Shown in pieces: positions 2,819 to 55,643 of a stretch of DNA of 64,000 bases. Origin of the DNA: a virus (taxonomy: Duplodnaviria; Caudoviricetes); IMG/VR virus record IMGVR_UViG_3300021400_000136, positions 1 to 64,000 of that record. The stretch is one strand, 5' to 3'. The notes beneath the pieces were generated by a model. The model saw nothing but the letters and a program-made list of their open reading frames with translations. It did not search any database and had not been told where the DNA came from. The position numbers and the translations under genes are program-made. Numbering within the stretch: the stretch's first letter is position 1; every line of letters begins with the position of its first letter.

Positions 2819-5124
2819 TGGCGTATGTAAATCTTGGAAAGATGCCAAGTCATGCGCGGGAGTACGTTGTTGACTTTCCTCAGCTTGACGGCGGTCTAAA
2901 TTTACAGGAGCTTGACTACAGAATAAAAAACGATGAAACGCCGGAGATGAAGAACCTCTGGTGGAAAGACGGCCTACTGTGCTGCAGAGATGGCCAGGTG
3001 TGGATAAGTGAAGATCCGATTGGTGTTTATCATGCATCCTACAGTCGATTGTGGAATGGAAAGATGCTTCTCCATGCCGGGAATAAACTGTGCGCAGTTG
3101 ATCCGCTGGATGGTGCTGAGACTGTACTATTTACAGGCAATTCCAATTTCAATGTTGGTGGTACGTTCTTTCCCTATAACGAGAAGATGTACTACAAGAC
3201 CAAGGGGTACTATATCGAGGTTGTGTATGACGGCGGTACGGATACTTTTTCCGCTTCAGAGGTGGAGGGGTATATTCCGGTAACATACATCAGCTGTTCT
3301 TATACGAACGGGGCTGGGACGATATACCAGCCGGAGAACAGAATCAGTTCGAAGAAGACCCTTTGGTATAACTCGGCCTACACTTTAACGGTAACGCCTT
3401 CCGGTACGCTCACGGCCATAATAGAAGCAGCCGCGTTTCGTATGAAGATCAATACTCCGGGGACGTACACCTTTACATATAGCTCTGGCTGGAAGCTCAA
3501 TGGAGAGGCGGCAGATCCTCTGGACTATGGGATCTCTGTAAGTGGAACTCCAGCGAGTGGCAACACCCTTGTTGTTAAGTATGGCTTTGTTACTGAATAT
3601 TATCTGCCGGAAAAGAATCTTGACGTCACAAAAGTAGAGGTCGAGGGAGTAAACAAAGCTATCGAGTCGAAGACAGTAACTGTAAGCAAGTCAAGTATGA
3701 AGGTCACTATTGATGACTATGCTTGGAGGGCGAAGGTTACTACCTCCGGTACGTACATGTTTGTTTACGATGGGGAGGCAACACCCTCACCCGGTTGGCG
3801 TTTAAACGGAACGCTGATTACTGCTTCTGAGTACGGTTTGTCCGTTACGGCATCCCAACTCCTTACCGGTGACACGATCACTATTAAGTATACGAGAGGC
3901 GAGTGCTGGTACGATCCGGAGAACGGTATTGTAGGTTTCTACACAGCACCGAATGTTTATTATCCGGAGATCACGAACACAGTCCATATCACATACAGCA
4001 AAGAGAATGCTCTGGCTGAGAAGAACGTGATGGACTGCACTATTGCAGAAGTTTACGGCGGTACCGGGGCATTGTGTATAGTAATGGCCGGATCTGAGGA
4101 TCAGCCGAACGCGTACTTCTGGAATGGGCAGAACTCGATATCGATGGATCCGTCCTATTTCCCGATGATACAGTACCAGCTTGCGGGTGATGCAGTTGAT
4201 CCGATTACGGCGTTTGGCAAGCAGCAGGGTTTTCTTATCATCTTTAAGAAAGGCAGCATAGGCAGAACTTCTCTCGGAACGGAGACTGTAAACGAGAGAA
4301 TGACCATCGATCTTCCTTATGTGAATATCAACGCGAAGATTGGTTGTGATTTGCCTAAGTCGATCCAGCTGATAGAGAACAATCTCACATGGTGCAACAC
4401 TTCACAGGGAGTTCATTTCCTGGCGAATACATCATCCGCGTATGAAAACAACGTTGTTTGTATTTCTCAGAAGGTTAACACATCCAACAGTTCGTGGACG
4501 ATGGGATTACTAAACGATGTGCAGAGATGCGATCCGATACTTGTCACGTCTCATGATGACGAGTACCGCTACTGGCTTGTGGCTGACGGGCATGTGTGGC
4601 TTTGGGACTACAACGTAAGCAACTATAAGAATCCGGCGTGGTTCTATTTTGAAAATGTTAAGGCCAGAGGTATTGTCCAGGAGGAGAATAACGTCTGGCA
4701 TTTTGATACTCTGAGCAGGCTAACTAAATTCGGAAGTACCTATTCTGACTATGACGGTGCGATAGACAAGGTGTACAGATTCACCACTCAGTACTTTGGC
4801 ACGTATGACAGAAAGAAGAATGTTAACTCGGTAATTATCAATTTGAGGTCTTCAACGGACTCTGTTGTGAAGGTCCGGTATTTGACTGACTACGAGGAAA
4901 GAGACGATCTTACCGATCTGAGGTCTCTATCCTGGTCGCTTGTACCGAGAGATCTGTCGTTCAGAAATCTGGAAGGAACCGGATTCTCAAAGACATTCAG
5001 ACGAAAGCCACATTGCAGAAGGGTACAGTATTTCACAATGCGTCTTGAGAACAACACACCTCGTATGGACCTGGCTGTTGTCTCGGCGCAAATTTATTAT
5101 ATTTATCAAGGGGGTCAGAGATAA
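2809..5124 (+). CDS. Tail nozzle / tail tubular protein B-like (P22 gp10-like beta-propeller) with inserted repeat domains
   Basis: 771 aa, beta-rich; GGLN..E motif at the N-terminus; AITAFGKQ..LIIFK blade motifs; C-terminal YFTMRLENN..DLAVVS. Follows the adaptor. Confidence 0.65.
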   Translation: MVVMAYVNLGKMPSHAREYVVDFPQLDGGLNLQELDYRIKNDETPEMKNLWWKDGLLCCRDGQVWISEDPIGVYHASYSRLWNGKMLLHAGNKLCAVDPLDGAETVLFTGNSNFNVGGTFFPYNEKMYYKTKGYYIEVVYDGGTDTFSASEVEGYIPVTYISCSYTNGAGTIYQPENRISSKKTLWYNSAYTLTVTPSGTLTAIIEAAAFRMKINTPGTYTFTYSSGWKLNGEAADPLDYGISVSGTPASGNTLVVKYGFVTEYYLPEKNLDVTKVEVEGVNKAIESKTVTVSKSSMKVTIDDYAWRAKVTTSGTYMFVYDGEATPSPGWRLNGTLITASEYGLSVTASQLLTGDTITIKYTRGECWYDPENGIVGFYTAPNVYYPEITNTVHITYSKENALAEKNVMDCTIAEVYGGTGALCIVMAGSEDQPNAYFWNGQNSISMDPSYFPMIQYQLAGDAVDPITAFGKQQGFLIIFKKGSIGRTSLGTETVNERMTIDLPYVNINAKIGCDLPKSIQLIENNLTWCNTSQGVHFLANTSSAYENNVVCISQKVNTSNSSWTMGLLNDVQRCDPILVTSHDDEYRYWLVADGHVWLWDYNVSNYKNPAWFYFENVKARGIVQEENNVWHFDTLSRLTKFGSTYSDYDGAIDKVYRFTTQYFGTYDRKKNVNSVIINLRSSTDSVVKVRYLTDYEERDDLTDLRSLSWSLVPRDLSFRNLEGTGFSKTFRRKPHCRRVQYFTMRLENNTPRMDLAVVSAQIYYIYQGGQR

Positions 5125-12582: not shown

Positions 12583-12870
12583 ATGAGTGAAGAAACGAAA
12601 AAGAACCTTGCAAGAAAATTTACCTCCCGTAAATTCTGGATGGCAGTGGCCGGTTTTATCGCAAATATCCTTGTACTTGCCGGTGGCAGTTCCGGTACAA
12701 CCGAGCGAATCACCGCTATGATAATGGCGGGTGGTATGATTATCGCCTATATTATCGGCGAAGGTTTCGCAGACGGATCTCCGAAAGAATATAACTACTA
12801 CTATCAGGGTAACGGAGAAGTGCAGTATGGAGATGCTACAGGGTATGAGGATGATAGAATTATACAGTAA
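12583..12870 (+). CDS. Holin
   Basis: RKFTSRKFWMAVAGF motif, two TM helices, IIAYIIGEGFAD motif. AAGGAG RBS; alternative GTG start at 12574. Confidence 0.8.
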   Translation: MSEETKKNLARKFTSRKFWMAVAGFIANILVLAGGSSGTTERITAMIMAGGMIIAYIIGEGFADGSPKEYNYYYQGNGEVQYGDATGYEDDRIIQ

Positions 12871-14941: not shown

Positions 14942-17900
14942 ATGCCTGATTTAATAAAGAAGAGACAAGAGATGACTGACTCCGGTACGGGCGATGTTAC
15001 CCCGGTTAACGTACCGGCTCCAACTCCTATTCCTCCGGCCAGTTCGCAGGCGGCTGGAAGAGCAGCGGCTCAGGCAGCGGCATCCGACCCTAATAAGCAC
15101 GCCACCCAAGCCGGTAAAGAGACTAGCGATGAGACTAATAAAAAAATGGGCTGGGGCGACTACGCAGAACCTACACCCACTCCTGAGTCCACACCCGACT
15201 ATTCCGGTTATTCCGAACCTACACCCTCTGCTGAGGATCTTGCAGCAGAGAATGCAGATAGCTATGAGTACAATCAAGCTGGAGAGACTCCGACCGTCAA
15301 GGCTGATGTAGCTGATGATACTGTCGAGGTTGCTGTCGAACCCGAGAAGCAGGAGGAGACCAGTAGCCAGGTGTCTAAAGGCAAGGAAGATGCTACGGCA
15401 ATGGGCGGTGTCGATGCCACTAAGATGGCGGAAGACGCTGTTATGCAAGGCCGTAGGGATGCAAGATACTATCCAGACTATACTGACTTCTATGGCGGGC
15501 TTGAAATTGATGGTACATCTCCGGATCGTAATGAACTGGATGAAAACGGCATGCACATATTCAAAGGCTATGAGGACGATGAGGGCAATTATGTCTCTGG
15601 CTTTGATGAGTGGTACAGTTCTAACAAGGCCGGTCTTACAGAAATAATTGACTTCGCTACCGATGGACAATTCCATACAGGTGATGAAGTGTATGCCCAC
15701 CAGAAGCTTGCTGCTAACCTTGCCTATGACTACCAGACGATGGCAGATTACTGGCAAGGTCGTATTGACGAAGCTAAGGAGTTTGTTGACTCCGCTCATG
15801 CTGATTTCGATGCGTTCAATTTTGACCAGTATGGTGAAGCGGGAGAGGAAGCAAAAGCAACCTGGCAGCAGGAACTGGATACGTTGGATGCCCAGTATGC
15901 TTCCATGGTCGAGGGTCTTGGTATCATCCAGGAGCATGGGGAAGCGGCAAAAGAATGCTATGATCTCATGGTGGAGAATAACAAGGCTTTTGCTCAGTAC
16001 GATGACGATAAGCTTCTTACTCAGGAACAGATAGATCAGCAGGTGTTGGATGCGGCGAAGAGCGCGAATGTGGCAACTGCATTCACTGATGAGGAGATAG
16101 CAGATTTCACTAAGCTCACCGACGAGCAGTGGGACGCGCTAATCGAAAGCGGTGAAGAGAGCTATGATAAGCGCCAGTTTAAAGCGCCTCCGATACCTAT
16201 CTTCAGCACTGAAGCAACCAGAGAGGAGCAGAGACTGGCTGACCTGCAGATCATGCGACAGGCCATCCAAGGGGCTCGTGATGCGGCTCAGTACAAGAAC
16301 GATGAGATTATGTTTGGCCGTAAGTATATCGGGCAGGATAATACTATCGCAGCTTGGGATGCAGCGGAAGCAGCACTCGAAGCTAATGCCCCGACAGCAG
16401 ATTCTACTCCGGAAGAGAAGGCTGCATACAACCATGAGCGCCGGTATATTCAGGAGAGAATTGATGCCTGCGAGTATAAGGCTTTCGTTGACGAGTATGC
16501 CGATGTAAGTGATTCAGATATTCGTCAAGAGCTTTTTGAAATGCGGTTTGGTAATGGCGAAACTACGACAGAAGATAGCGCGGATACTAATGACACAGCG
16601 CATAATTTGTTGACGGCAAAATCTGCTTACGATGCAGCAGAAGAGGCCTTTAATGAAATCGCCGAAACTGCCCGTCCTACATCGGCTGAGTACCTTGATG
16701 CATACCAGGCAATGAAAGAAGCGGAAGCTGCATACGCCGAAGCACTTCAGCTCGCGAAGGATGAGTCAAAACTCGATGTCGGTGAGATCTTCGACTTTTC
16801 AGCCTTTGCAGATATCTTATCTGGGGCGCCAGAAGAAAATGAACTCAGCGCCGAAGAGCAGAAAAGAGCTGAGTATCTCCAAAGATTGCTTCAGGATCGA
16901 GAGATATCGGCTATACAAGAAGAAATTAAGAGCTACGAAAAGGACTACCCAGATGGGACTGCTATGCGGCATTGGGCAGAAGATATCGAGCTCGACGTAG
17001 AAAAGAAAGAAGCAGCACTTCTGGACGCGCAGACAGAAGCAGGTAAGCTGGATGCAGAGGCTTATCAATATGCTACTGTAGACGCGCATAGTACAGAAAA
17101 TCATACGCCGGAAGAGGCGGCACAGAAGGCCCAAGAAGCAAAAGACGCGCACAATAGAGCACTGATCGCGGAGCAGGAGCTTGCTGAGGCGAAAGGAAAA
17201 CTCGCTCTTGTGCAGGCGCTGAACCAGACCAGTATCCGATCCGAAGCAGACTATGCCGAGCAGGTTGCCAAAGGTAAAGAAATGGCTGGAGATATAGCCC
17301 AGTATAAAGAGGCTATCGATACGGCGATGGATGTTGGGCTCGATAGGAAGCCTGCGGTTGATGCTCTCGTCACTCAGTTCGGCCTTACCCAAGAGGACGC
17401 CGAGAAGTACGTGGATATGTACTTCACACTGGACGAAAAGGAGAGGGCAGTACTTTTCCCAAATGTAGATGGAGTTGAGGAAGAGGAACAAGGCTGGCTC
17501 GGAAAATGGTGGGACAAAGTTACAAGGTCTCCGTACCTTGGTGAAAAAGAAGTAGGCAAATTTACTGACGAAGAACTGAATGACTTTTACTACCATCTTG
17601 CTAAGGAAGGTGCATCAGCTGCAGCTCAATATGCGATGGGTGTAAATAATGCCTATCGTAACGAGTACAACGATCTGGCGAAAGAGCGTTTCATGCAGTT
17701 GCAGAACTACAGGGCAGGTCATAATGGCAAGTTCCAGACTGCTGTAGAAGCGGCGATGATGCCTGTAGGTAACTTTGCGCTGAATCTCACAGCCCTTCCG
17801 GAAGCTATCAGTAATTTTATCCAGGCAGAAAAACTTGGAATGTCTGTAGCTCCTACCGATCCGACAAACAGCCAGTTGGCTGAATGGGCGCAGGAAAGTT

Positions 17901-20900
17901 CCAGTAGACAAGTTACGGCTATGCTGCCGAACTTCAAACCGGCAGAGTTCCTTTATAATACTTATAACAGTATCGTTAACAGTGCTCTGTCACTGGCAAC
18001 ATTCTCAGCTCTTGGTAGCGCACTTGGCTTAACAGATGATATCGTTATCGGTGGTAAAGGTGCTTTACAGGCATTCGTATCAGCAGCTACAGATCTTGAA
18101 TTCTTCGGTTCAGCAGCAGCCAGTAGGTACAGAGAGTTGCTTGAGCAGGGAGTCGATCCGCAGAAAGCAGGATGGGCGTCAGTGTACTCCGGTCTTGCCG
18201 AGGCTATGTTCGAGCACTTCTCCATTGAGAACTTGTACCACGCAAAAGGTGTTGCTGATTGGCATAATGCACTGGATTGGGCGTGGCACACAGCGTGTTC
18301 TGCCGGTGTCGAAGGCTCTGAAGAATTGTTCACCAACTGGGCTAACCGACTTGGTGATGCCTTATACTTAAAAGAAGATAATCCTTTCAACGATAGTGTT
18401 GATGCCTATATAGCGCAGGGTTTTGAAGAAGATCAGGCTCTGCGTTTTGCTATGCACGATCTGCTGAAAGAGGATGCTCTGTCCTTCCTTGGTGGTGCTA
18501 TCTCCGGTGGTGTTAATGCCGGTAGTTCCAGCATGATGGAGTGGCAGATAGACAAAAATAAACTTGCAGATTTCCGCGCATCCCAAGGTAAGAACTTCAA
18601 CATTGATCTTCCAAACGGAAAGAAAGCCTCACAGGAACTGGGTACTTATCTGTGGAATCATGAGTTCATCAGACCCGGTGACGAACATCTCTTCAACGAG
18701 GGACAGCGCAATACTGTTGAAGAAATAAAAGATCTGGCGTGGAAAGCTAGTGAGGGTAAAGCTTCTGACGAAGAGATTGGCCGTTTGCAGTATCTCACGG
18801 CACAATTCGACAGTAAAGTACTTGATGATTTTGCTCTCGCTAACAAAGATTGGTATGGCCGTGTAGAACCGATGCGTCTGGTACAGGTATCCCAGGAAGC
18901 ACTTAATAAGCTCCTTGGTCCTGAGAACGCGCAGAAATATCTTGAGGCAGTAAGAGCTAATCCGCATGCAAAAGTGGAGAACGACTTCTCCTTAGGACTT
19001 CAGCAGGCCGTTCCAAATATGGGCAGTAATGAAGCATCGGAAGTTGCTGGATTCCTCGAAAGAATATTCACAGGCTCTGACAGAACAACACCTGAAGATA
19101 TAGCAAAGGTATTAGACTCCGAATTGCTCAGTTCTCCAGAGGCTCAGATGTATCTTTGGAATTATCTGAAGGATAAGGTACCGACAGATACTCCCGCTAT
19201 TGAAGTGGCTGCCCCGGCAGAACCGAGTGGGCTGACTCCTTCTGCTGAATGGGCTGGCCAGAATGTAAAGAGAGAACCTTCTCCGATTAAACCTGCCAGC
19301 CAGATGGAAACTGACTCTGGAACAGAGGCCGCAGATAGAGAGCCTACTCCTATTCCCTCTGCGGAACAGGCAGCGGAGAATGAGAAGAGTAGAGAAGAAG
19401 CTGAAGCCAAAGCACGGGAAGAAATACAGAATCCGTTTATTCCAATCATGCAGTCGATTGGCATGGATCCGAATATTACATCGGAGAATGTAGGCGAAGC
19501 CTTGAAGAACCTGCTCACAACAACCTGGGAGAGAGCAAAGGAAGCGGCATATCAGAATCAGATACTGAAGAACGGCTTATCTGATACTAATCGTAAGTTG
19601 AACGATATGCAGCATGAAGCAGCTGAACAGCAGACGAGAGACAGGCTTAACCGCGCCCCGAAAGGTATAAAGACCGATGCGTTGGCCCAGTACAGAGATG
19701 ACTCCGACTCCATTACTTTTGGTAATAATACCACTACCCGTAAGGAGTTCGTTGAAGCCTATATGAAGGGCTATGACCCGTTCAACGATAAGGAGATAAA
19801 GGGGCCGAAAGACGAGAAGGCAGCAAACCGTGCCTTTGACCGTATCCTATTGAACAGCACCACAAAGGATGGACTTCCTCTTGAAGGTGTTAAAGCCTCC
19901 ATGAAGAACTACGATCTTTCTTTGCGGAAGGCTATTGTTTCTGATACCAAAAAAGGAACTGGAGAGCCTAAAGACCTGGAACGCAATGGCGAACCAAAAG
20001 CGCAAGAGCCAGCATCCGGTAAGCTTAATGTTCAGACTCCAACAGATAATAGTGCTGATATGAAGGAAGGCACGGCCACCGGTACGGAAGTTACCAGAAA
20101 TGGTGAGCCTGACCAGACAGAGCCTACTGATAGTAAGCTTAATGTTCAGAATCCAACAGATGATAGTGCTGACATGAAGGACGGCACAGGTACTGGTACA
20201 GAAGTTACCAGAAAGGGTGAGCCCGAGCAGACAGAACCTACTGGCGGCAAGCTTAATGTCCAGACTCCGGCAGATACTAGCAGTGATACCACAACGGGCC
20301 AGACTTCTGTCGATGGCAGTGAGTTGTCCAGAACTGAAAAGCCTGCTGAAGAAACTCCGGTAGAAGATCAGACCACTGAAGAGGTAGCTCCAGATAAAGC
20401 GCAGCAGTTCCTTGACTATCTCCAAGTCATGATGCAGCAGACTGGCGAGATGACCGATGAGGAATTCAATGCCCTGTTTGGTGGTGCTACTGACACAATA
20501 CTCGACGCATTGGTTGGAAGAGAACCTGCTAATGATTTCGAGCGTAGAGTTATTGATGCTGCTACGCGGGAGATGGACAGGCGCACATCCGAAGACCAGA
20601 CTATGGCTCAACAGGACGAAGCTCCGGCATCAGCAGAAACTTCGGATTTCAAAACAGATGATAACCTCTTCGCAACTAATGGAAAAGAGGATAAGAGCTG
20701 GCGCAGCTGGGATGACACAATAAATAACCCCGACAGCAACGATGACGAGATTATAACCAGAGCAGAGTTTGTTGAACGCGCTATGAATGGCGTTGGCAAG
20801 ATTAAGCCGATGACTTTCGCCGAGGCAAATGACTTGTTCGATGACTTGGCTTATATCGACGAACATGATAGCGATACCAACACGGACTACGGTAAAAAAG

Positions 20901-23900
20901 GTAGCAACCCAATGTACTCTGCAGGTGGCGCATCCACTGGAGCATCTGTAGCTACTGGTAGTGAACTCAATATGAAGCCGGTTACGTACTCTGCTTCGGA
21001 TGTTCCCGGCCTTGTCGAGCTTGGCAGGACGAGCTATTCCCCCTCTAACCGTACTATTAGTTCCTCTGACCGTAGCTGGGGTGATGCAATCAGCAATGAG
21101 TACGGCAAGACCATTACTCGTGCAGAGTTCGTTGCAGCTGCTATGTCTGGACAGAATCTGTACTCCGGTACCAGGATGCCTACAATTTCCGGTGTTGCAG
21201 CTAACGATCTGTTCGATGATATTGTCGATAATAAGATTGCTTATGGCGGATATGCCGACAGAACCAATAACGGTTACAGTATAACAGACGCTACAGTTAC
21301 AGCGGATATGCTGAACGCTCCTGGTTTTGTCGGAGCTATGGCTAACACACTGGCTATCCTCGAAGCGGAAATGAGGTCGGCATCTGATACGAGCAATCAA
21401 AAACTCGCTCCGTTCATGAAGCGAGTAGATTTAGCACGTAAGCAACTTGAGGGCCTGCTTGGACGGAGTGTATCCGACGCGGCAACCGAAGTTACTGACG
21501 TACGAAATCAGATCAACACAAGACTTGCGGAGATTAATAACAGGCTTGAAGTACTGATGAGCCGGTCGGATCAGAACAAGATCGGCTATCTGGTAGACCT
21601 TAAAGAAATGTCCCAGCTCAGAGCAGAGCGTCAGAAGCTAATGACTCAGACGTTCAGACTTGGGCAGGCAGAAGCAAAGTACACGAAAGCTCTTGACCGT
21701 TTGAACTCGGCAAGAAACAGAATGTACTCTAATGATTATTATTCTTATATTGGAGGAAAATTATATGGCGGACCAGCGGGTACTCGTGGACTCACCGGCA
21801 GGAACAACGATGTGGCTCAGTCCAGAAGCGGCGGATCGGTTACAGGATCTGCCGGAGGATCAGCTCAGTCGGTACAAGGAAATGCAGGAACAGTCTCAGA
21901 GCAGACTTTTAAAACTGTTGAAGAAATACTATCCGCAGGAGGGCTGACACTCCGAGGCAAAGTACTATTCGATTCTGCCGGGATGTCCCCGCAGGAGATA
22001 GCAAATGCCAAGATCCCGTTGTCCCTTCGTAACAGCATACTCCACGCTATGCGTAATGGTGTTGGCCGTGTTGTACTTACTGACGGTGATCTGCTGAATG
22101 GTAAATCCTATATTAATGAAAAGGGTAAAGAAGTTGAGCAGACAGTCGGTGGATTCTATGACACTCTCATGGACGGTGGTACGGAAAGATCTGTTATTGT
22201 TCTGCACAAAGACAGCTTCACCGAAAAGAACATCCAACACGAATACATGCACCATATGCTCCGAAAGATGTCTGAGCGTCAGAAGCGCGGATTTCTTACC
22301 AGCGCTATCCGGACAATGTTTGGATCACGCCAGGATCTCTTCGAAGAACTGTTTGACTCCTACAAGATCGACTATGCAATTGCTCATGGCAGAGTGATCG
22401 ATGAGAACGGCAGAGTGGATGAAGATCTCGCATATATTATATATGAAGAGATGGTCGCCGACTTCTATGCAGGACTCAATCGATTCAAGACCCCCGAGAT
22501 GGCAGAAGCGATGGGGCCGCTCGTCAGGGAGATGCGTGTAAGCCTGTACAATTACTGTGAGAGACTTGGACTTGAGGACTACGCCAGATCAAAATGGATT
22601 AACAGAGAGTATACTCCTAAAGAAGGAACTCTGGACATCCGGAGAACCGGTAGAGCCACTGCGCCGTATGAGCAGCAGTTCAAAGAAAGAACTGAATCAG
22701 ACAACGAACTGGCAAAGGGCGAACACCGATTCAATCCAGAGCGAAATGCTTATGAGGCGCGATTTAGTTTGGCCAATACTATGGGTGGAATCTACGACAC
22801 ATATGGTGTGGACATTAATACTGCCGAGGATAGCAGACTTGACGAACTGGCGAGGCAAATCGACGAGGAGTACGAGGCAGCGCAAAAAGAGCAGGCTGAC
22901 ATTCGAAGCACATGGACGGATAAGGACTACGCAGATCTCACTCCCGATGAATATTGGGCCCGATATCATGAGTGGAATGAGCAGTCTGGCATTGACGCCG
23001 TAAAACGTCGCGTCGATACACTTGGGTCGTACAGTCGTGCAATCAGCAAAGAGAAAGCTTGGAGAGCGATAGACCCAGAGGCCCTTATTCAAAAGGCAAA
23101 AGATATCTACGGAACCACTGATGACTTCCGGAAATCTGGGTACATCCTGCCGGATGGAACGATGTTGGATATGTCCCAGGGTGCCAACAAGCGGACTCTG
23201 TTCCACCATGAGACCGCTCAAGAAGTTCTGTTCGCCTTGAAGTATCCGGCTTCAGACGCAATTGAAAAATTCGTAGGTCGTGGCGGGGCCATCAGAATCG
23301 ATGTAGACTCCGATGGTATTGATATCCCGCAAAGTGGCATGACCCCGGCTCAGTACGAAACCCTGCGCGACTTTCTTTCTGACTTCATAGCTACTGAAGA
23401 CTACGATAGAGCAGCATTCTATGTATCTACTTTTGGTAAGAACCTGGGAACGTCGGAGAGATTTAATCCTTCCAATACCACACAGATCTTAAACGCAATT
23501 CGCCAGTACTACGATACAGGTTCCTTCCCGAAACAGTCAACCACACAGCAGTTCTACGGTAGATATAGCCTGGCCAACACAGAAGCTGTATCTCTTGACG
23601 AACTTCAGACAGCTCGTGATGAGATGCTTGATCTGCGTCAGCAGCTCAGAGATCGTAAGGCTGATGTCGATGAGTGGAGCCGTAGAATTATGGCTGGTGA
23701 AGCTGAGATCGACGACTACAATAAGTGGCTGTCCGATAGCGGTTACAACAGACTCTACATGCAGGAACGTGAGGCAAGCAAACGGTATAACGACCTCAAC
23801 CGCGCTTATGACGAGCAGCAGGAGAGCGCGAATGCCGAAGCCGAGCAGAACGCAATAGAACAGTCCGGCTTATCCGAAGCAGATTACTTTGGCAAAGAAG

Positions 23901-26900
23901 CCGTAAAGGTATTTGGTTATACACCGTACTTCTATGACGCTGGGTACATTACTCCGAACGGACGGATGCTGAACTTCTCCGGTGAGAAAGGTAAGCACTA
24001 TGGCTCTCGAGGCCAGGATCACCGGAGCATAGGCCAGATCTTTGCGGTAACTTCCGGCACAGAAGCCATGAACAGGTTTATCAGCTATGGTAATATCCGC
24101 ATTATGGCAGAGGCTCCAGGCCTGGATATCAGCGCGAATATCGAACCGACAGCAGAGCAGTACTCTAGGATCCGTGACTTCGCAAGGAGCGCACGGGATG
24201 AGGACTACTTCAGTATCGATATCACGGGCGAAGATGGTAGGGTCATTGATACAATCGAGTACGAAAGCGTCAACCCAGCGAAGATAGTAAACGATCTGAA
24301 GAACTACTACCGTACTGGTGAAGTACCGCAGCAGTCTGTTACTGCGCAGTTCCATGCTAGCTTTAGCCTTGTTGGCGTTTCAGATGATGGTATGGAGGTA
24401 TACGAAACCTCTCAAGCCGTAAAAGATATGACCAGGGAAGAACGTATGGACGCTTTCGAAGCACGAATGGCTAACGAGTTCAGAGGCCGTACCGCTAGAT
24501 TCGAAAGAAACGGTCATATCTACTATGCTAAGTTCGATAGTACTGGCGTTTCTAAAAATATCTATGGGGACGACAAGTCTGATCAGTCCGGATGGAGAGC
24601 CAAGATAAGAGCCGGAGCAGATGGCGATATCTTTGATCTGATAGAGAATTCTACTTATAATGGCAGCAGCGCAGAAAAGAGTGGAAAAAAAGGTAAGGCC
24701 CATAACAAGACCCAACGCTGGGACTACTTCATAAAGAAGGTCCAGATCGATGGTATTGTGTATGACCTCACTGCAAATGTAAGACGTAAAAACGATGACT
24801 TCGTTTATAATATCCAGCTTAACCGGGATATTAATACAAAACCGGCGACGTCTTACAGCCCACTCCCGAAGGCGGGTTTTAACCAAGACATCGCCGGTAC
24901 AGATAATGTATCACAAAACGGCTCAACTGTCAAGTACAGTAAGCAGGAACATCCGAATGCTAGGTACAGCCTGTGCGCATTTGAAGACGGCACAAAGTTC
25001 GTAAACGTCGAAACAGATCAAGAACAGTTTGATGGACTAACGGATAAAGAAAAGCGCGACTTAGCAGAAAAAATAATAAAAGAGCGGTTCTCCGGGAGAA
25101 TAATCGGTGAGACGAACAAAGCCTTCGTCAATAGCCAGACTGCAAGAGAGTATGCTTATCCGTCAAAACGCCTTACAGATAGTGGGGTACTTGACGCTAA
25201 GATGAGGGCGTCAACCGAACTAGATAATCTACTGGAGGCCGGTAGTAATTTTAGGACGGCACCTGATGGGGCTGACGGGCATACACACCCAGACGCCGTA
25301 GGAGGATTCACTTATTTTGACACGCTGTTTAAAGTAGGTGAGGAATTCTATAAAGGTCTTGTCAATATTAAGAATAATGCCAAGGGCGCTCTTCTAGTAG
25401 ATATTACAAAAATAGAAAACGTCACTAAGGACACATACAACTCATACGGAAAAAATCCGAAGTTCGTATTCCTTAATGACGTTTCTAATGATATTAAATC
25501 ACAGAATAACCCGAATGTCAAGAACCAAAATGAATCTGAGCCGAGCTACTCCATCGCTGTCTCCGATCCCGATACGTTGGACTTCCTTAACGACCAACTC
25601 GAGAACGGGGATGTAGTTTACACCTACAAATCCTTCCTTGAGTACGAAGACGAGAATGGAGATCCGTATCTAATTGCTCCTATGGCTGGTGTGCAGAAAG
25701 ACGAGACGGGCAAGAAGAGCCAGTCGCATGCCCTTCGTCCAGGTGTGTGGGAAGAGTCTGTTGGTAATCCCAACTCTAAGAGCCTCGGTAAGAAAGTCAA
25801 TGACAAGACCGGTGAAGTATCCTGGACTTATGGACTTGAGAAGAGTGACGTAGATGGTTCTGTTGTACCGGCTGCATATAACCCGTATCAGCACTCCAGT
25901 GATGTAGTTCTCAATGACCAGTTCTCCATTGCGTACAAACGTCCAAACCTGGTAACGTATATGTGCGCTATTCCTAAGAGTGAACTGACCAGTGGCTATC
26001 ACTTTGGTGTAACCGATCCTGAGAAGGCAACTCGTTCTGACGGCGATATTGTTACCGCAAAAGACGCGGTTGGTATGCACGACTGGAAGAGCGGTTCCCT
26101 AGCAAGCCAGTTAGAAAACACACAAAGACATGTGTATCTTTCTCGGTGGCTCATGCCGGTACGTAAGCTGTCCAACATAGAAGTTGCTCAGCAGTACAAG
26201 GAGATCCTCGATAGGGAAGCACCCGGTCTTGGTGTGCCATTCAATGTTGTACCTTCCGGTTTGCTCTCAGCTCTTCAGGAAGTTGGCGTTCCAATTGACC
26301 TTACTGGTACAGGACTATCTGAAGCCAACTACAGAAAATATCTTTCTGAAGTAAACGCTGCTCGTGAAGAGGCAGGTCTTGAACCGTTCCCGTACTCTTA
26401 TCAGACTAAAGCCGAAAGAGATGCCGCAAAGAAAGAACGGAAGAACGCTTCCAAACGGTTCTCGATCTCTGGAGACAACCTTGATAATCTTGACGATCTT
26501 CTGATGGATTATGATCTTTCGGATCTCGGAAGAATAGTTTCTGACACATTTGGTTCTACCTTTGAAACAGAAGAGGACGAAATGCCTCCTGAACTTCCGT
26601 ACGAACAACAGCGTCCTAGAAGATCTGTAGAGAACCCGACTCACAATCCAACTGCTTATCTGAAACCAGAAACACTAAATGCATGGCTGTCCGGAAGGGG
26701 CTTTGCCGATACAGGTAACCCGAACTATGCGCAGGCTTACATCGGATGGATGAATCCAGAGGACTTCCTATACTTGACAACCTCTACCTATGATTACGAG
26801 GACAATAGAGTAAGGGCGGAAGGATACTACGGTGATCTGGAAGATATCTCTAGCAGGGCGCAACGTGGAAGAGAAGCCGATACAATTCATCTTTCAATTG

Positions 26901-29900
26901 ATTCTGAAACAGGAAGAGTATACGGGCATGAAGGGCGCCATCGTATGGCCTACCTGCAAAGCCTTGGTGTGGAGAGAGTCCCTGTTCTTTTCTTTGACAG
27001 CGGAAATAAGTATGATAAGGAAATAATGGAGGACTATACTCTATCTGGAGAGCAGAGGCCAGGGAAGAAAGTTACTCTCGATAATCCTCTGATCCCTCTC
27101 AGCAATGGGTACAGAGGGCTTGTCGAGAACGAGTTCGTTAAAGGCGAAGAGCAAGACAACGATCTTCAGACAGCGCGATTTTCCATCACGGACGATTCGA
27201 ATGCCGATGGCTATACTCTGTCAGATATTGATTCCACAGGAAGAGAATTGACGGACGAGCAGTATTACTACTTCCGCAATTCGAAAGTAGTGGACGAAGA
27301 TGGGCATTTAATTCCGCTTTACCATGGAACGAATGCATTCGGCTTTACCGAGATAGACTTCGATAAAGCAGACGATGGAATATCCTTCTTCCTCACGGAT
27401 AGTCCAGAAGTGGCCGGGTCCTATACAAGGAACAATACTGTCCGATCCTTATTTGATAAGCAAAGACAGCGGCGGGCGATTGATGTATCAAAGCTTTCGG
27501 ATGAAGATCTAGCTTCGCTGTTTTCCCAAGTTAGTATACCGTACTTCGAATCAGCTACCGTATCGAAATTTGAGGATGTACTCAGAACCTTCACAGGCCC
27601 ATTGAACGCCGCAAAAATGCGATACGCCAGTTTCTTTGAAGAAGAACTGTTACCGTCCAGAGAAGATCTTGGCCTTACTGAAACGGACTTAGCCTTCTAC
27701 GACGCGCTGAAAGGCAACAGCACTAGTGTCGAAAGCATCATAGATTTGCTTGATAGAGCAGATAAATTCTATTATAGCCTTCGCAAAAAGATATGGGATA
27801 CCGACGAAAGCTATATTTGGGACGAAATGCGATCGCTGCAACCGCAATTACAAACCGCAGCTTCTCAGGCACAAAGATTTCTGGCTGACCATAATTCTGC
27901 TGGAGTATCTTTGGAGGATAATGTTTTTATTACGGATCCAGGTAGCAAGAATTTCTACACGAGAGAGCAAATCGAGAGACTTACTGGCAGAAGACAAGAG
28001 GAAGAAGAGCTCGGAAGGAACTCTGCCGGTATTTACAAGGGGTACGCAAATCTAACAAATCCATTTATTGTTGATGCAAATGGAGCTGAATGGAATCAGA
28101 TTCCGGTCGATCAAGAAGTAGTAGACTATCTAAAAGCACTTAATTCGCCAGAGTTCTACGTCTCAGAATGGGCAGAAGACGGAGAGGTTAAAACAAGGGG
28201 AATAGCTAAGTACGCAAAGGATCACGGATATGACGGCGCTATAATTAGAAACTGTGTTGACATCGGAGAGTATAAGCGTTCCTACGACTACGAAGCGTAT
28301 TCTACTCCGGCAACTCTGGTGCTATGCTTTGAACAGAATCAGTTCAAAGACTATAGAAATACAGAACCTACTGATGGCATTGATTTAAGATTTTCTATTG
28401 CCGATACCTATGACGCCTTTGGAGATGAAATCGATGTCCAAGATGGAACAGTTCTGAATGCAACCAAGTCCACACTTTCTGATCAGCTTTTCTATTCTGA
28501 AGACGGTAATACCGCCTACTACCAGCTCGACTCTGGTGAGACGGTGGTTATGGAGAACGTAGGGGAAGACTCTCCCGAAGCACGATACATTAATTTCTTG
28601 GAGGCAACGAACAATGCCAACAGTACTGACACAACCACAGCAAAACCTTATACGATACCTCCTGCAACTCGGTATGAATCTGATGGATATAATATCGGTG
28701 AATCGAATGATGGCCTACGACGAGGAGCGGAAGAAGTTCCTTCGGCGAATCAAGAAGGAACACTTCGACGTGCAGGAAGTAATGGAGAACGCAATGAACA
28801 GAGTCAACCGCAGAGTGAAGAGGCGGAAGGTGTAAGGTTCTCTGCCACTATCCCGACAGCTGACGACCCGAACCATCCGACAGCCTTCGTCAACCAGAAC
28901 GGCGATGTGGTTACCACTGCTGAAGCTTACCCGTACGGATCTATGGAGCGCATGATCATCGAGGCATGGAACACTGGTGACTTCAGATCTATTGAGGACC
29001 AGATTAACGAAATGCTCGATATCGGCCACGCCAGAGATGAAGTCTTCGATATGATGGAAGAGATCGCTGCACAGCCTCTGGGGCTTACTCCTCAGGAGCG
29101 CGACGCAGTCTACAGACAGATCGAAGAGATGCGTGTACGGTATGGAACGATGCCGTCGGCGAATGTTACGAAGCGGGATGTACATTTCCCAGTAGCTACA
29201 GACGACGACACCAAACTGATGAAGGGCGCACAGACCCATGCACAGGAGGCCGAGACCGAGTGGCTGTCTGAAGAGATCATGGCAGAAGCACTCCGTAACG
29301 AGATTCTCTCCTATGTCCCTGCATCTAATAAGTCCTCCATCGAAAAAGCGGAAGACTATATCAAAGCGAAGAAAGGTAATTACGAAGAGATCGCAAGAGA
29401 TGTCCACGCTTGGCTGGCATCCGGAGAGCGTGTCAAACCGTGGCAGGTAGCAGTCGGCGAACTCCTTCTTAAAGAGGTAGAAACCGAAGGCAGAGCAGAC
29501 CTCGCTATGTCTCTCGTAATAGACCTTACTCTTATGGCCCATGAAACCGGACAGGCTCTGCAAGCTTTCGCTATTCTCCGGAAGGCGACTCCGCGTGGAC
29601 AGCTCTACTATCTGCAAGGTGTTGTTAACCAACTGAATAAAAAGTATGAGAAACAGATCCGAGAAGGGAAGATGGGCAAGATCGAACTTCCGCAGGATGC
29701 TGCGCAGAGAATGCTCGCATGCGAAACACGGCAGGAACTGAATGACGTAGTCGAGGAAATAAAGGACGAGATCGCGAAAAAGATTCCTGTATCATGGGCT
29801 GATCGCTGGAACGCATGGAGATACCTGGCTATGTTGGGTAACCCCAGAACACACGTTCGTAACATGCTTGGTAACGGCCTGTTCCGTCCCGCCGTATTTA

Positions 29901-32900
29901 TCAAAGACGTTATCTCCAGAAGACTGGAGGATATAGCAAGTAGGCACGGCAAGCTGGAAGGTAGGTCTCGTATAGCAGGAGCGAATCTGAAATCCGATAC
30001 GGAATGGATGCGCTATGCCAACGAAGACTATGAGGAAATGTACAAGATCCTTGTAGGCGAGGCAACCGGTAATAAGTATGCTGATGCCAACGACATCCTC
30101 TCCAGACGAGATCTCTGGGGTAAAGACAAGTGGCTCGGTGGTAAGTTCCTTGCATGGGCAGACCGTAAGAACAGCGACTTACTTACTAAGGAAGATGCTA
30201 CATTCCTAAAGAAGTACTACACCAGAGCGTTTGCAGAATTCCTGCAGGCGAGGGGTGTAACGGAAGAAGATCTCCGTGATAAGAAGTTTGGCGCTACCAA
30301 GGCAAATAAGAAGCTCATCAACGAAGCAAGAGCATGGGCAACAATCGAGGCTCAGAGGAATACCTACCGTGATGCCAATGCAGTAGCTTCCTGGCTTAAC
30401 TCCATGAAGCGTCAGGGTACTGTTCCTTACACAATCCTCGAAGGTGTTGTTCCGTTCACCAAGACCCCGATGAACATCCTTGCCCGTGGTATTGAGTACT
30501 CTCCGATTGGACTGATTCAGAGCGTACGGCAACTGGCTAAAGATCTTCGTAGTCCGAGCGAGATGACCACCAGCCAAGCGCTGGATAGACTCGCTGCCGG
30601 TATGACCGGTACGATGATCGTTGGCCTCGGCCTGTTCCTCACTGCTATGGGCTGGCTCCGTGGAAGTGGTGGAGATGATGATAAGAAGAAAGAGTTCGAA
30701 GAGCTCATGGGTCATCAGGCATGGTCTCTTGAACTGTTTGGCTACAGCTACACCATCGACTGGATGGCACCGGCTGCACTGCCACTCTTCATTGGCTCCG
30801 CTATCTACGATATGCTGGCGACAGAAAGGGAAGAGGAGCTCGGCTTCGAAGATATCGTCAAGGCACTGCTTGGTATAGCGGATCCTCTCAGCCAGTTGTC
30901 CATGCTGGATGGTATCTCTACTATGCTCTCCAACCTGGCGGATGCACAGGGGACGGAACAATTCTCCGTATTACTCTGGACTGCACTGACAAGCTATGTT
31001 GGACAGGGTATGCCTACACTCCTTGGGCAGGTAGCTAGAACATTCGATCCGGATAGACGGTCAACGTATATCCAGCCGGGTAGCAAAAACCCGATGCTGC
31101 AGCGGTTTATCCAGTCCTCCATACAGGCTAAGATCCCGGGTTGGGAGAACCAGAAGATGCGGTATGTGGATAACTGGGGTAGAACAGACTCAGCCAATAC
31201 ACCTTGGGAGAAATTCCTAAAGGGCGTTGAGAACTTCCTTTCACCGGGTTATCTGAACAAGATCGAGACCTCCGCTGTTGAGGACGAGCTGATGAGGCTG
31301 TACGAAGCAACCGGAGATAAGAACATTCTGCCAGACAGAATGGGTAAGTACTTCCAGGTTGACGGAGAACGGAAGAACCTCACAGCAGATGAGTACGAGC
31401 AATTGCTCACGGAAAAAGGACAGATGCACTATAACCTTCTGAACGAGGTTATGTCCTCTGAGTATTACGCTTCTCTGACTGATGAACAAAAGGCAAAGCT
31501 GCTCCTCAACGCTGGAGAATTCTCAAAGAACTACGGCAAGCAGATGGTAGATCCAGAGTTCGATATGGACAGCCACTGGATGGATGTAGCAAGGGCAATA
31601 GGCCCCGCCGATTATCTGATGATCCAGGATGATCTTTCCCACAACAGGACTCATGACCAGCTGTTCACCTACCTTGTATCCAATCCGAATCTCAGCTACG
31701 ATCAGATCGCATATCTCATCGCTGATGAATATGCCGCTCCGGACAAGATTCCCAGTGTCGGTAACAACGGCTACAACTATGAGATCACTGAGGAAGATGA
31801 GGCAGCGATGCAGGAGATCTTCAAAGATCTGGTACATACGCGCCTTGCTGAATTAGAGACTGATCCCAGGTATGTTGCAGGCGATGAGTACAAGAAGGGC
31901 GATATGATGGACAACCTCTATAATGAAATTAAAGAGGATGTCAAAACAATATACGCCGAACAGCTCGATGCATCCGACCGTCCGATGGTACTTGGAAAGG
32001 CATCTTCTGTAGGAACCGAGTCCTTTAATATGGTACTCGATCTTACACGTAACGAGATCGAAGGAGAGTACAGGGATGACATCGCAGCACAGGCTGGATG
32101 GTTAAGCCAGAAGTACCGGGCTGACTCCCAGATCAGTAACCCCGATAGAGACGGCTGGGATATCAAGCTCAGTGCTGATGACAAGGACGAGCTGTATGAT
32201 GAATTCCAGAAAGCTTGGGAGCCTGCATACAGAAAGATGCTTACTGAAGATCCTGAGTTCCGCAACGCCACAAGCCGAGCATATCAGGATAAGATGATAG
32301 CATCCTTGTTCAATGAAGTTTCCCAGCAGGTAGAAGATGCATACGCTTCTAAACTGTACAAGTCCGGTAAGGCTGATGAAGTCATCGGCGATCCGAAGGG
32401 GACGGCAAAGAAAGACTGGCTGAAGAACTATGAGATTGCCAACGAAGCCTACACCAATCCTAAGGATCAGGCAGCGTGGTTAGCAAAGAGATTTACCGGT
32501 GCTACCACTTTGGACAACCCCGACAGACCTGGGTACAATATCAAGACGAGCGATGCACAGCAGGCTCAACTTGCTCAGATCGAACAGGATAGATTCACTG
32601 CCGAATATGAAGCAATGAAGAAAGATCCGAAGTTCAAGAGCATGACACCGGAAGAGCAGGCTATCCAGACATACCAGCTGGCGCAGAACATCATGGATGT
32701 CGAAGAGGCCAAATACTCCAGATATCTGCTGGATAGAGGCGCAAAGATCGAACAGGCAATCGATACTCAGTGCACGAATTCTGAATACTTCAATATGGTA
32801 TTCTCAGAAGATCTCACTGATAGCGAACGGTACGACCTGATCGAACAACGCTATGACAGATATGTTGGTAAGAGTATTCTCAATAACTCCCTCGACTACC

Positions 32901-33334: not shown

Positions 33335-33379
33335 AAAACCCCCTACTACCGTAATAAGTAGTAGGGGGTATCTTTTTTT
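33335..33379. terminator. Bidirectional intrinsic terminator between the convergent halves of the genome
   Basis: CCCCCTACTAC (33339-33349) / GTAGTAGGGGG (33358-33368), with AAAA 5' and a T tract 3'. Confidence 0.85.
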
Positions 33380-43370: not shown

Positions 43371-44474
43371 TTAGCCTAAAGCCAATCGGAGACTATCAGA
43401 ATTAATTTTTTCTGCGGTTTTAGGCAATTCCTGTTCAGCCATATATTCTGCATAAATAGCCATCGTGATATCCGGTGAAGAATGCCCCATCAGATACTGC
43501 GCTTCTTTAGGCTGCATCCCGCTGGCGATCCATCTCGTGCAGCAGGTGTGCCGCAGAACGTGTGGCGTAACGTGAAAGTCCAGCGTCGGCTTTAGATGAT
43601 ATCCAGTGCTCGGTCCGCCCACTGTCCGGTTCGTTACGAAACTCCACATGCTGCGGATGGATTCTGCTGTCATGAAGCTTCCAGACTTACAGGGGAACAC
43701 GTACAGGGATTTGCTTCCAGACTTCAGTGGCTTCAGAACCTGGTAGATCTCCGGTGCCATCGGGATCTTCCTGTGGGCCGCATCGGATTTCATCATGGTG
43801 TTGATCTCGCCCTGCCGATTTGACTTCGGCCACACGATAGATCTTTCCACACTGATCATCCGGTTCTCAAAATCCAGATCCTTCCACATCAAACCAGCAG
43901 CCTCGCCTTTACGCAGACCGCTGAATAGACAGGTGACGATGAACGGGTACACCCTGGTCCCTTTGGTAGCTTTCAGTAAAGCCTCGCACTGTGCATCCGT
44001 CAGCGGCCTTACCTTCTCTGGTTTATCAGCCGTAGCTTTTTTATTGAAGGCAGGGGAGCGAGGGATGATATCATTCTCTACAGCTTTGTTGAAGATCTTG
44101 TTCGTGTACGTCAGCACCTTTTCCTGTGTGCTCTTCGACAGGTGGGAGATGTTCAGCAGCATACGATCTATGTTCGCTGGCTTAATGTCCTTAACCCTTC
44201 TGTTACCGAGCTCTGGGAGAATGTACCGCTTGACAATATCTTCTGTTGATTCCTTTGTCCGTACATGGAGTTTGCGCTGGGCCTTATACTCTTCGAGCCA
44301 GAGCTCGGCAAGTTCGCCAAACGTCGTGCTGTTACCGACGTCATATCCCATAAGAAGTTTGCGCTTCGCTTCTTCTCTTTTCTGCTCAGCCTCCTTCTTT
44401 GTCTTGCCGTAAAAGTACTTCCTGCTCTTGTCCGGGAGCTGAAGAGATACTTTAACTAATTTTTTATTGGCCAT
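43371..44474 (-). CDS. int: Tyrosine integrase
   Basis: N-terminal arm-binding domain (RKYFYGKTKKEA); SGLRKGE (R), HVLRHT (HxxR), LMGHSS..ITMAIY (H/W, Y). Confidence 0.95.
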   Translation of the reverse strand: MANKKLVKVSLQLPDKSRKYFYGKTKKEAEQKREEAKRKLLMGYDVGNSTTFGELAELWLEEYKAQRKLHVRTKESTEDIVKRYILPELGNRRVKDIKPANIDRMLLNISHLSKSTQEKVLTYTNKIFNKAVENDIIPRSPAFNKKATADKPEKVRPLTDAQCEALLKATKGTRVYPFIVTCLFSGLRKGEAAGLMWKDLDFENRMISVERSIVWPKSNRQGEINTMMKSDAAHRKIPMAPEIYQVLKPLKSGSKSLYVFPCKSGSFMTAESIRSMWSFVTNRTVGGPSTGYHLKPTLDFHVTPHVLRHTCCTRWIASGMQPKEAQYLMGHSSPDITMAIYAEYMAEQELPKTAEKINSDSLRLALG

Positions 44475-54842: not shown

Positions 54843-55022
54843 CCTTGGCTGCCTCCTTGTTATTTCGGAGATACTGCATGACGGCCTGCCATTCTTCCTT
54901 CAACGTAGGCATCATGACTATGCCGTCATTGCGATACTGTTTTTGTCGCCACTCGTTTTTCCTCATGGCATCTCTGTTCCGCTGTTTCTTTTTCATGCTT
55001 ACCTACCTTTTAAATAGAGTAG

Positions 55023-55104
55023 TGCCGGAGAGGGGACTTGAACCCCTACGGATTTCTCCCTCAGATTTTAAGTCTGATACGTCTACCGATTACGCCACTC
55101 CGGC
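55023..55104 (-). tRNA. tRNA-Leu(UAA)
   Basis: GCCGGAG/CTCCGGC acceptor, TCAGA-CTTAAAA-TCTGA anticodon arm, long variable arm, GTTCAAGTC; no encoded CCA. Confidence 0.88.
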
Positions 55105-55110
55105 ATATAA

Positions 55111-55175
55111 AGCCACCGGCTGGACTCGAACCAGCGACAACCATTACGGGCTCTAGCCATCTGAGCTACGGTGGC
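55111..55175 (-). ncRNA. tRNA-like RNA lacking an anticodon arm
   Basis: Intact acceptor GCCACCG/CGGTGGC, D arm GCTC/GAGC and T arm GCTGG-TTCGAGT-CCAGC. The anticodon arm is reduced to CCGTAATGG. Confidence 0.7.
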
Positions 55176-55192
55176 ATAGTGAATTTTAATAG

Positions 55193-55279
55193 GACCAGGG
55201 GTGGGATTCGAACCCACATGGATATTCTCCAACGGTATGCACACTACCGATACGCGCCTACCAATTGCGCCGCCCTGGC
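55193..55279 (-). tRNA. Atypical class II tRNA (Leu-like body, GUG/His anticodon, C73)
   Basis: GCCAGGG/CCCTGGT; D arm GCGC/GCGC; three extra bases before CGGTA-GTGTGCA-TACCG; variable hairpin TGGA-GAATA-TCCA; canonical T arm. Confidence 0.55.
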
Positions 55280-55289
55280 TTGTGCGATC

Positions 55290-55363
55290 TGGTACTCCGG
55301 GAAAGAATTGAACTTTCGTTAAGGCCTTATAAGGACCCTACTCTGCCATTGAGTTACCGGAGC
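55290..55363 (-). tRNA. tRNA-Ile(UAU)
   Basis: GCTCCGG/CCGGAGT, ACTC/GAGT, GGGTC-CTTATAA-GGCCT, GAAAG-TTCAATT-CTTTC, encoded CCA. Confidence 0.85.
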
Positions 55364-55569
55364 GGGTGTGTGGGATTTCCACCCACGCGGCTTGGTTTCA
55401 ACCTGCGACCCTACTGGTGGGCCAGCTGCCATGAGGTAGATGAAAGGAGGTGGGTGTTCGCGACCACCGACACAGGTAGCATAGCCAGTTGCTGCATGTG
55501 CCTAAAACGCATATCAGAAATCCGTTCGTGCCATTGGACTCCGCGACAAGTCCGGCATAGATACGTAAG
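55364..55569 (-). ncRNA. Candidate structured RNA within the tRNA cluster (anti-SD motif, T-arm-like hairpin)
   Basis: Hairpins at 55530-55556 and 55370-55386; CACCUCCUUUC at 55442-55452; no credible ORF. Confidence 0.35.
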
Positions 55570-55643
55570 CAGAGCCGACAGGATTCGAACCTGTGAATAC
55601 GTGGTTCAAAGCCACGCGTGATAGACCGCTACACCACGGCTCT
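55570..55643 (-). tRNA. tRNA-Gln(UUG)
   Basis: AGAGCCG/CGGCTCT, CGTGG-CTTTGAA-CCACG, ACAGG-TTCGAAT-CCTGT; no encoded CCA. Confidence 0.88.

Follow-up and report, generated by a model that had tools for sequence, protein, structure and literature searches.

A conserved antisense RNA unit predicted within LPD3-like modules of a giant polyvalent phage gene and its relatives in Clostridia phages

Introduction

This report concerns a 64,000-nucleotide stretch of phage DNA, hereafter the window, which is the first 64 kb of the 80,151-bp IMG/VR record IMGVR_UViG_3300021400_000136, a record bearing direct terminal repeats. Within it, two adjacent LPD3-like modules of a giant polyvalent gene each carry, on the opposite strand, what is predicted to be a small RNA gene. 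Comparison with homologous loci, about 70 in total and coming from IMG/VR phages and from prophages in Clostridia metagenome-assembled genomes (MAGs), suggests that this antisense transcription unit is conserved, with purifying selection acting on its promoter, its structure, and its tail, and that it is fused to the LPD3-like modules of Clostridia phages. The unit appears to occupy, on the minus strand, the last ~40 codons of each LPD3-like module together with the following linker, and its predicted layout comprises a sigma-A-type promoter (TTGACA, 17 nucleotides (nt) often with TG, and TAnAnT), a start 7 nt further on, a closed hairpin of 55-95 nt, and a U-rich tail. Given this layout, the RNA would be essentially a 5'-blunt terminator hairpin, complementary to the 3' coding end of the module. 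That a selected antisense RNA gene exists at LPD3-like modules is, in our judgment, very probable; an antisense unit that silences its module in cis is the best explanation of the whole that we can offer, and we give it an even chance.

A first-pass annotation of this DNA, made from the letters alone, had proposed an antisense promoter and a closed-stem RNA at the end of the first of these modules, and had read the RNA as an antitoxin or decoy for an RNase-like domain, as in type III toxin-antitoxin systems, or alternatively as a cis-antisense silencer. The selected minus-strand promoter and closed-stem RNA stand, on the strength of covariation, the asymmetry of G-U pairs, the -35/-10 pattern, the suppression of synonymous change, and the number of homologues, whereas the type III layout does not.

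The two modules and their antisense units

The features on which the argument rests are given below, with positions in the window.

14942-33328, plus strand: host gene, a single open reading frame (ORF) predicted to encode a 6128-aa polyvalent virion or ejection protein (Pfam ART-PolyVal and LPD3; head, tail, and lysis cluster)
24332-24961, plus strand: module A, LPD3 domain (Pfam core 24476-24805) with C-terminal tail and linker, from Pfam, homologue boundaries, and alignment A2
24962-25570, plus strand: module B, a divergent LPD3-like domain with tail and linker, paralogue of module A, from 24-25% identity, LPD3 relatives, and the ESM Atlas
24928-24933, minus strand: -35 hexamer of the A-unit, TTGACA, conserved in 20 A-type homologues
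24905-24913, minus strand: extended -10 of the A-unit, TG-A-TACATT (TG at 24913-24912, TACATT at 24910-24905), the 17-nt spacer ending in TGA
24841-24898, minus strand: RNA of the A-unit, a 58-nt closed hairpin from the predicted transcription start (-32.4 kcal/mol, z -4.7)
24832-24840, minus strand: U-rich tail of the A-unit, UUUGUAUUA, presumed intrinsic terminator run, also U-rich in homologues
25493-25521, minus strand: promoter of the B-unit, TTGACA (25521-25516), a 17-nt spacer ending in TGTGA, and TTTAAT
25400-25492, minus strand: RNA of the B-unit, with closing stem 25484-25470 paired to 25431-25417, inner helices, and a UUUUCUAUUUUUG tail

The boundaries of homologues delimit two adjacent modules in the giant protein, at residues ~3130-3335 (A) and ~3340-3540 (B), which share motifs and a collinear identity of 24-25%. 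Module A is a member of Pfam LPD3 (PF18798) above the cut-off (31.7 bits against 27). Module B, a divergent relative, has no Pfam LPD3 match itself, and such a match is found in 3 of 8 of its relatives (best E 3.2e-5); its nearest ESM Atlas clusters are also LPD3. Direct homology between the two is weak (hhalign E 0.01 with low probability; BLASTP E 2.2), and their paralogy rests on the collinear motifs, on the Pfam and Atlas matches, and on the RNA unit that they share. Given the module map and this paralogy, the two units sit at corresponding places, in homologous C-terminal tails of paralogous LPD3-like modules.

Promoters of the sigma-70/sigma-A type have the consensus TTGACA and TATAAT at a distance of about 17 bp; T-12, A-11, and T-7 are the most conserved positions, and a TG extension is optional. 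At the end of module A, the minus-strand sequence TTGACA-N17-TG-A-TACATT agrees with 10 of the 12 consensus positions and adds the TG extension, and every element of the promoter proposed by the first-pass annotation was found where it had been placed. The same applies to the stem, in which 24898-24885 pairs with 24854-24841 over 14 bp, its first base being the 7th nt past the -10 element, and to the U tail, the stem being followed by UUUUGUAUU. With a stable, G+C-containing hairpin and a U run directly after it, the A-unit has the form of an intrinsic terminator, although a simple terminator scanner is unsuited to it because the hairpin loop is too long for the scanner. The inner C(UUCG)G hairpin that had also been proposed exists as an alternative register supported by two pairs, the inner helix at minimum energy being CCCG/CGGG with a CCUU loop. 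In addition, the 14-bp stem includes one G-U pair, which on the plus strand becomes an A-C mismatch, so that the stem is indeed complete on the antisense strand alone; the plus strand of the region still folds, at -26.5 kcal/mol (z -5.0) against the -32.4 kcal/mol of the minus strand.

In module B, the stem of the antisense unit begins 8 nt past TTTAAT and is followed by the U-rich UUUUCUAUUUUUG, again in the form of an intrinsic terminator. The stem sequences of the A-unit and the B-unit are unrelated to each other.

Taken alone, the promoter match of the A-unit is not beyond chance, because promoter-like sites are not enriched between 15 and 34 kb (16, against 22.6 in shuffles). The 18.4-kb ORF has two stems of 14 bp or longer, against 0.05 expected, and on this count a chance origin of the stems was rejected; both are located in the homologous tails of the paralogous modules. 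The A-unit and the B-unit are also among the most stable minus-strand 80-nt segments of the giant ORF. Compositional strand bias was likewise discarded, the giant ORF as a whole having no strand bias in folding (47% of segments).

Conservation of the hairpin among homologous loci

A single-protein query returned no related loci, and alignments were needed as queries; searches driven by them yielded, from IMG/VR, 33 loci of the A type and 29 of the B type, and a further 30 of the B type from bacterial assemblies. The latter are nearly all from Clostridia (Oscillospiraceae, Acutalibacter, Christensenella, and Lachnospiraceae), and the sole genome of a cultured strain among the matches is that of Eubacterium oxidoreducens DSM 3217 (L092, NZ_FMXR01000016.1). 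Compared with the rest of the module, the homologous stretch has z values of mostly -3 to -9 in 40 distinct viral loci, and the minus strand is more stable than the plus strand in 34 of them.

For the B-type viral set, RNAalifold predicts four nested helices. In alignment A4 of this set 91% of cells are paired, against ~46% in controls with slid partners, and 15 of the 20 pairs are compensatory; none of 500 shuffles is as good, a statistic that is inflated by the relatedness of the sequences and against which the slid-partner controls are a guard, since they retain that relatedness. A covariance model built from the viral set, R1, finds the minus-strand RNA in all 27 of the bacterial-assembly B-type loci that include the tail, and in this independent MAG set 95% of cells are paired and 16 of the 20 pairs are compensatory (alignment A8 was fitted to the model, and A4 was not). 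Within the window, R1 gives the B-unit RNA 100.2 bits (E 2e-18, a rough value, as are all E-values of this model, owing to its shortened calibration); it fails to detect the A-type RNA. Moreover, G-U outnumbers A-C in the stems of the two sets (42:5 and 71:7, or 113:12 summed), which argues for a selected structure on the minus strand, and these counts led us to reject a sense-strand structure as the selected form.

Regarding the A-type RNAs, 17 of 20 homologues are closed hairpins of 55-95 nt running from the predicted start to the U-rich tail, and their closing stems are quite different in sequence. MAFFT and RNAalifold found no consensus structure for these RNAs, whose loop lengths differ, and they were judged by folds of each sequence anchored on the promoter; because the loop lengths defeat column alignment, A-type covariation means differing stems, with no formal count of columns. 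U-rich tails are present in the homologues of both types.

The strong conservation of the B-type internal loops, together with a separate promoter and terminator and a stable 5'-blunt hairpin, would also suit a small RNA acting in trans on a target unrelated to LPD3, such as a host or phage mRNA or a host defense protein, and overprinted on the module to save space. The loop conservation is, however, confounded by the conserved SYG-NPKS peptide, and a unit that is kept at every LPD3-like module, in multiple copies with very different sequences, is hard to fit to one external target. We hold such a role in trans to be quite unlikely.

Promoter conservation and codon constraint

Among 46 distinct B-type sequences, the -10 hexamer reads T46, A44, T35, A43, n, T46, and the -35 element T44, T46, G42; the spacer is 17 nt long in 41 and the gap from the -10 to the first stem base 7 nt in 40. 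A promoter score of at least 10 is reached at 54% of sites and in 2% of control windows. In the A-type sequences (alignment A6), the T-A...T of the -10 is invariant and the TG extension is frequent.

The -10 hexamer corresponds exactly to two sense codons, and the choice of these codons is unusual. Where the first of them encodes Ser, it is AGT in 37 of 37 cases, against a usage of 14% in the domain core, and the second codon has the form NTA (Ile-ATA or Val-GTA) in 49 of 51, against 20-33% of the Ile/Val codons in the core. The A-type -10 is likewise held by rare codons, AGT/AAT and then GTA/ATA, in 27 of 27 sequences. The residues encoded over the -10 vary (S/N/T/R/K, then I/V/K), and an AlphaFold2 model of module B (mean predicted local distance difference test score 89.7 overall, confident for residues 1-170) has the promoter-encoding residues 180-190 disordered. 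Because the amino acids vary, rare codons hold the T-A-n-A-n-T pattern, and the modeled linker is disordered, the peptide over the promoter is best seen as a by-product of the latter, in agreement with the first-pass annotation.

The constraint extends over the whole unit: where two sequences share an amino acid, they use the same codon in a fraction of 0.46-0.50 of cases within the domain core and 0.72 within the unit, in both families, and in family B this step matches nt 25412-25531 and drops back after. Homogenization of the linker by recombination was rejected as the sole cause of this nucleotide conservation, since the spacers vary and the hexamers are kept.

With the strands and the promoter both considered, it is highly improbable that no antisense gene exists and that the pattern comes instead from a pause structure of the sense mRNA at the domain boundary, from a DNA recombination hairpin for module shuffling, or from chance. 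In its favor, the units lie at the module junctions of a mosaic protein, and the plus strand also folds well (z -5.0). Yet the 113:12 ratio of G-U to A-C favors the minus strand, which is the more stable one in 34 of 40 homologues over an unbiased background; TTG and TAnAnT elements at a fixed spacing, with a variable spacer, are predicted neither by gene conversion nor by a pause site; and the chance expectation for the stems is 0.05.

Occurrence across phages and prophages

In MAG loci totalling 94 kb, a pattern-plus-fold scan that was blind to gene strand picked out 28 units running antisense to the polyvalent gene and 1 in the sense direction, often with two or more units per polyvalent gene. 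Locus L082 has three modules in a row (B-type, third type, B-type), each of them ending with a unit, and the units are about 600 nt apart. The third module type (L082:1040-1230) begins with a YSL..DG.E.V motif that it shares with the B-type, and its unit consists of TTGCTT-N17-TATACT, a hairpin with a 13-bp stem 7 nt on, and a U tail. The Eubacterium oxidoreducens locus, L092, has a divergent B-type module whose RNA scores 31.8 bits, and a further unit at ~L092:566. Short contigs in which the domain was called as a short gene keep the promoter and the RNA as well. At L065:649-742, a one-base insertion splits the domain ORF within an internal loop of the RNA, whose fold and promoter are intact; this frameshift may be an artifact of sequencing, or it may mean that the RNA persists longer than the ORF. 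Searches of 151 genomes with R1 and of the E. oxidoreducens genome with Pfam LPD3 gave no matches and are uninformative, because they also missed the known weak copy.

The arrangement of the units in arrays along a gene, and an RNA that is little beyond a terminator hairpin 7 nt from its promoter, raise the question of whether it is the act of transcription that matters rather than the RNA, either as a polymerase roadblock or interference against leaky sense transcription, or as a site for making a primer. However, the hairpins are long (closing stems of 13-16 bp plus inner helices) and conserved well past the needs of termination, and a roadblock at the 3' end of a module would leave that same module open to transcription. 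We therefore consider this explanation very unlikely.

Fold and possible activity of the LPD3-like domain

A wide, exhaustive VIA-align 2 search with module B gave weak matches (Z 3.0-4.1), the top rows of which are mostly RNase toxins of the RelE/BECR fold: CdiA-CT, BrnT, RelE, YafQ, YoeB, colicin D, and T4 RegB. Foldseek found no match in the PDB at E <=0.001, and a hidden Markov model search of PDB sequences with the domain gave none. A fold search of the ESM Atlas with the module B model (24962-25471) returned template modeling (TM) scores of 0.66-0.69 over about 155 residues, the matches being C-terminal domains of Bacillota regulators of the helix-turn-helix HTH_3/CI type and LPD3 clusters. 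The modeled CI-regulator-like fold is a hint that the domain might bind a ligand or a nucleic acid instead of being a toxin. Since Z is at most 4.1, Foldseek is without a match, and the Atlas favors CI-type regulators, the BECR/RNase reading of the LPD3-like domain is kept as a lead.

This lead bears on the proposal that the RNA is an antidote or decoy which binds the LPD3-like domain in the producer cell, so that a putative RNase would stay inactive until it is packaged and ejected into the next host, in a type III-like manner. In favor of this proposal, there is one RNA per module, the RNA type follows the module type (A, B, third), and every copy retains its unit, even where a gene has 2-3 modules. 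The RelE/BECR-fold toxins among the top structural neighbors of module B point the same way, but those matches are all weak, the PDB search by Foldseek gave none, and the best Atlas folds, the C-terminal domains of regulators, do not suggest a toxin. Moreover, the interior of the A-type RNA varies, from 55 to 95 nt overall, which is unexpected for the specific ligand of a protein; the co-inheritance of RNA and domain is explained by their physical overlap alone; and the layout is unlike that of known type III systems. A protein-binding antidote is, in sum, unlikely.

It is doubtful, too, that LPD3-like modules are cassettes of toxin and RNA antidote that can be shuffled as one piece, with the antidote gene running antisense in the last codons of the domain. 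If this were true, recombination would carry the antidote wherever the domain goes; such an architecture would be new among toxin-antitoxin systems and would explain in general how injected toxic domains are safely made in the phage's own host.

Silencing in cis as the favored explanation

Four considerations lead us to favor a cis-antisense silencer, the alternative that the first-pass annotation had named and one that fits the anatomy better than the type III layout. Complementarity to the 3' end of the module is built into the unit; the promoter is of the host sigma-A type and should therefore fire in lysogens and in early infection, while the target is a late gene; in the A-type RNAs only the closing stem, the promoter, and the tail are conserved; and every copy keeps its own unit among several similar modules, as fits action in cis. 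If it is made, the RNA would lie opposite the last codons of the module with perfect complementarity, as in type I and other cis-antisense systems.

The mechanism that we propose resembles that of lambda OOP or of type I antitoxins, and in this specific form its chance is somewhat below even. Host RNA polymerase would make the hairpin RNA constitutively, in the lysogen and in early infection, and, where the module ends, the RNA would pair with any sense transcript leaking from the late giant gene. The duplex would be cut by an RNase III-type activity, and the unprotected upstream piece would either be degraded 3'-to-5' or yield a non-stop product, with the outcome that the LPD3-like effector domain is not made at the wrong time. 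Later on, massive late sense transcription would titrate the silencer RNA out.

Several points weigh against silencing. A silencer at the 3' end leaves the domain translatable unless decay or tagging follows, and there seems little need for two or three silencers in one mRNA. The short apical loops are rich in U, and inspection by eye found in them no obvious YUNR kissing motif. Furthermore, the -10 of the B-unit in the window (TTTAAT, 25493-25498) is without the near-invariant A at position 2 (A-11), and the spacer of the alternative -10, TAATAT, would have to be 19 nt long. Despite the 100 bits of its RNA, the B-unit may be a weak or decaying copy.

The phage and its giant polyvalent gene

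The plus-strand genes between 1 and 33 kb of the window include a major head protein, tail fibers, an endolysin-like protein, and the 6128-aa ORF. Because Pfam finds ART-PolyVal and LPD3 in it, the latter is taken to be a polyvalent protein as the term is used by Iyer et al. 2017 (PMC5512222), and, as it is placed among head, tail, and lysis genes of the same strand, the giant gene is assigned to the late virion cluster from its position. Past 33.7 kb there is a minus-strand block with an integrase, a primase/helicase, a DNA polymerase, an exonuclease, an anti-repressor, and four tRNAs, some of which are positioned as follows.

43371-44474, minus strand: integrase
62339-63136, minus strand: anti-repressor
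55022-55643, minus strand: cluster of four tRNAs (Leu, His, Ile, Gln)

With an integrase and an anti-repressor, and with relatives that sit in Clostridia MAG contigs, the phage is probably temperate. INPHARED phages and PLSDB plasmids gave neither a DNA nor a protein match.

Three further structures were seen in this region. Just past the stop of the giant ORF, at 33338-33369, T runs flank a perfect G+C-rich palindrome of 12-13 bp, which probably terminates transcription from both directions where the late and early gene blocks converge. Close to the 5' end of that ORF, the minus strand of 15182-15290 folds at -32.9 kcal/mol (z -3.5), against -21.8 on the plus strand, and a matching upstream promoter was not seen. 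Upstream of the ORF at 12940, at about 12608-12760 on the plus strand, the pattern-plus-fold scan picked out a sense unit made of TTGCAA-N16-TAAATT, a 106-nt closed hairpin, and a U-rich tail.

Polyvalent proteins are believed to bear effector domains that are co-ejected with phage DNA, and the LPDs (LPD1 to LPD40) are listed as domains of elusive function; in the part of that paper drawn on here, LPD3 is absent from the potentially enzymatic LPDs that are named, and an RNA for LPD3 is unmentioned (Iyer et al. 2017, PMC5512222).

Comparison with known systems

The embedded antisense units look like a so far undescribed class, to judge from the homologues, and one that is conserved in dozens of related gut phages. 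When the window was searched with Rfam 15, only tRNAs reached the threshold, the unit region giving chance-level matches to miRNA and snoRNA hairpins far below it, and full-text literature on polyvalent proteins together with LPD3 or antisense RNA held no description of such an element. We know of no account of how the expression of polyvalent proteins is controlled, or of how the producer cell is spared from harmful domains. An antisense RNA gene welded to one domain family would be a concrete and testable control element, as well as new information on the LPD3 family and a new class of structured RNA outside Rfam. It is also a clear case of dual coding, in which the constraints of RNA and promoter shape a protein linker, and a warning for annotation that a linker peptide may be conserved as a by-product of something encoded on the other strand. 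The copy in the cultured Eubacterium oxidoreducens DSM 3217 offers an experimental handle.

Among known systems, the type III antitoxins (ToxIN, CptIN, TenpIN) are tandem direct repeats that lie upstream of the toxin on the same strand and are processed by it. The likeness on which the first-pass annotation had drawn is that of a structured RNA proposed to neutralize an RNase-like protein and specific to its own toxin. Here, in contrast, the coding sequence encloses a single antisense hairpin, and a tandem array is absent.

Another likeness is found in the type I pairs with 3' overlap of Bacillota prophages, such as txpA/RatA and bsrG/SR4, in which a sigma-A-driven cis-antisense RNA is convergent with a harmful gene. 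The units described here share with them a cis-encoded, convergent antisense RNA, the overlap at the 3' end, a sigma-A promoter, and an occurrence in Gram-positive prophages. However, toxins of the txpA/RatA type are small membrane peptides, and their RNAs are of 100-220 nt and lie largely in the 3' untranslated region, whereas the RNA here has 55-95 nt and is fully intragenic, and its partner is no small (<~60 aa) hydrophobic peptide but a soluble alpha/beta domain of ~170 aa in a protein of 6128 aa.

Finally, lambda OOP is a constitutive antisense RNA of ~77 nt, with its own promoter and hairpin terminator, which is complementary to the 3' end of cII and leads to RNase III cleavage. Like OOP, the unit predicts a short antisense RNA with promoter and terminator at the 3' end of a coding region in a temperate phage. 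It differs in that the RNA begins directly in the stem, and no sequence or Rfam relation to OOP was found; in addition, the whole unit falls within the coding sequence of a domain, appears to move with that domain among mosaic genes, and is present in 2-3 copies per gene.

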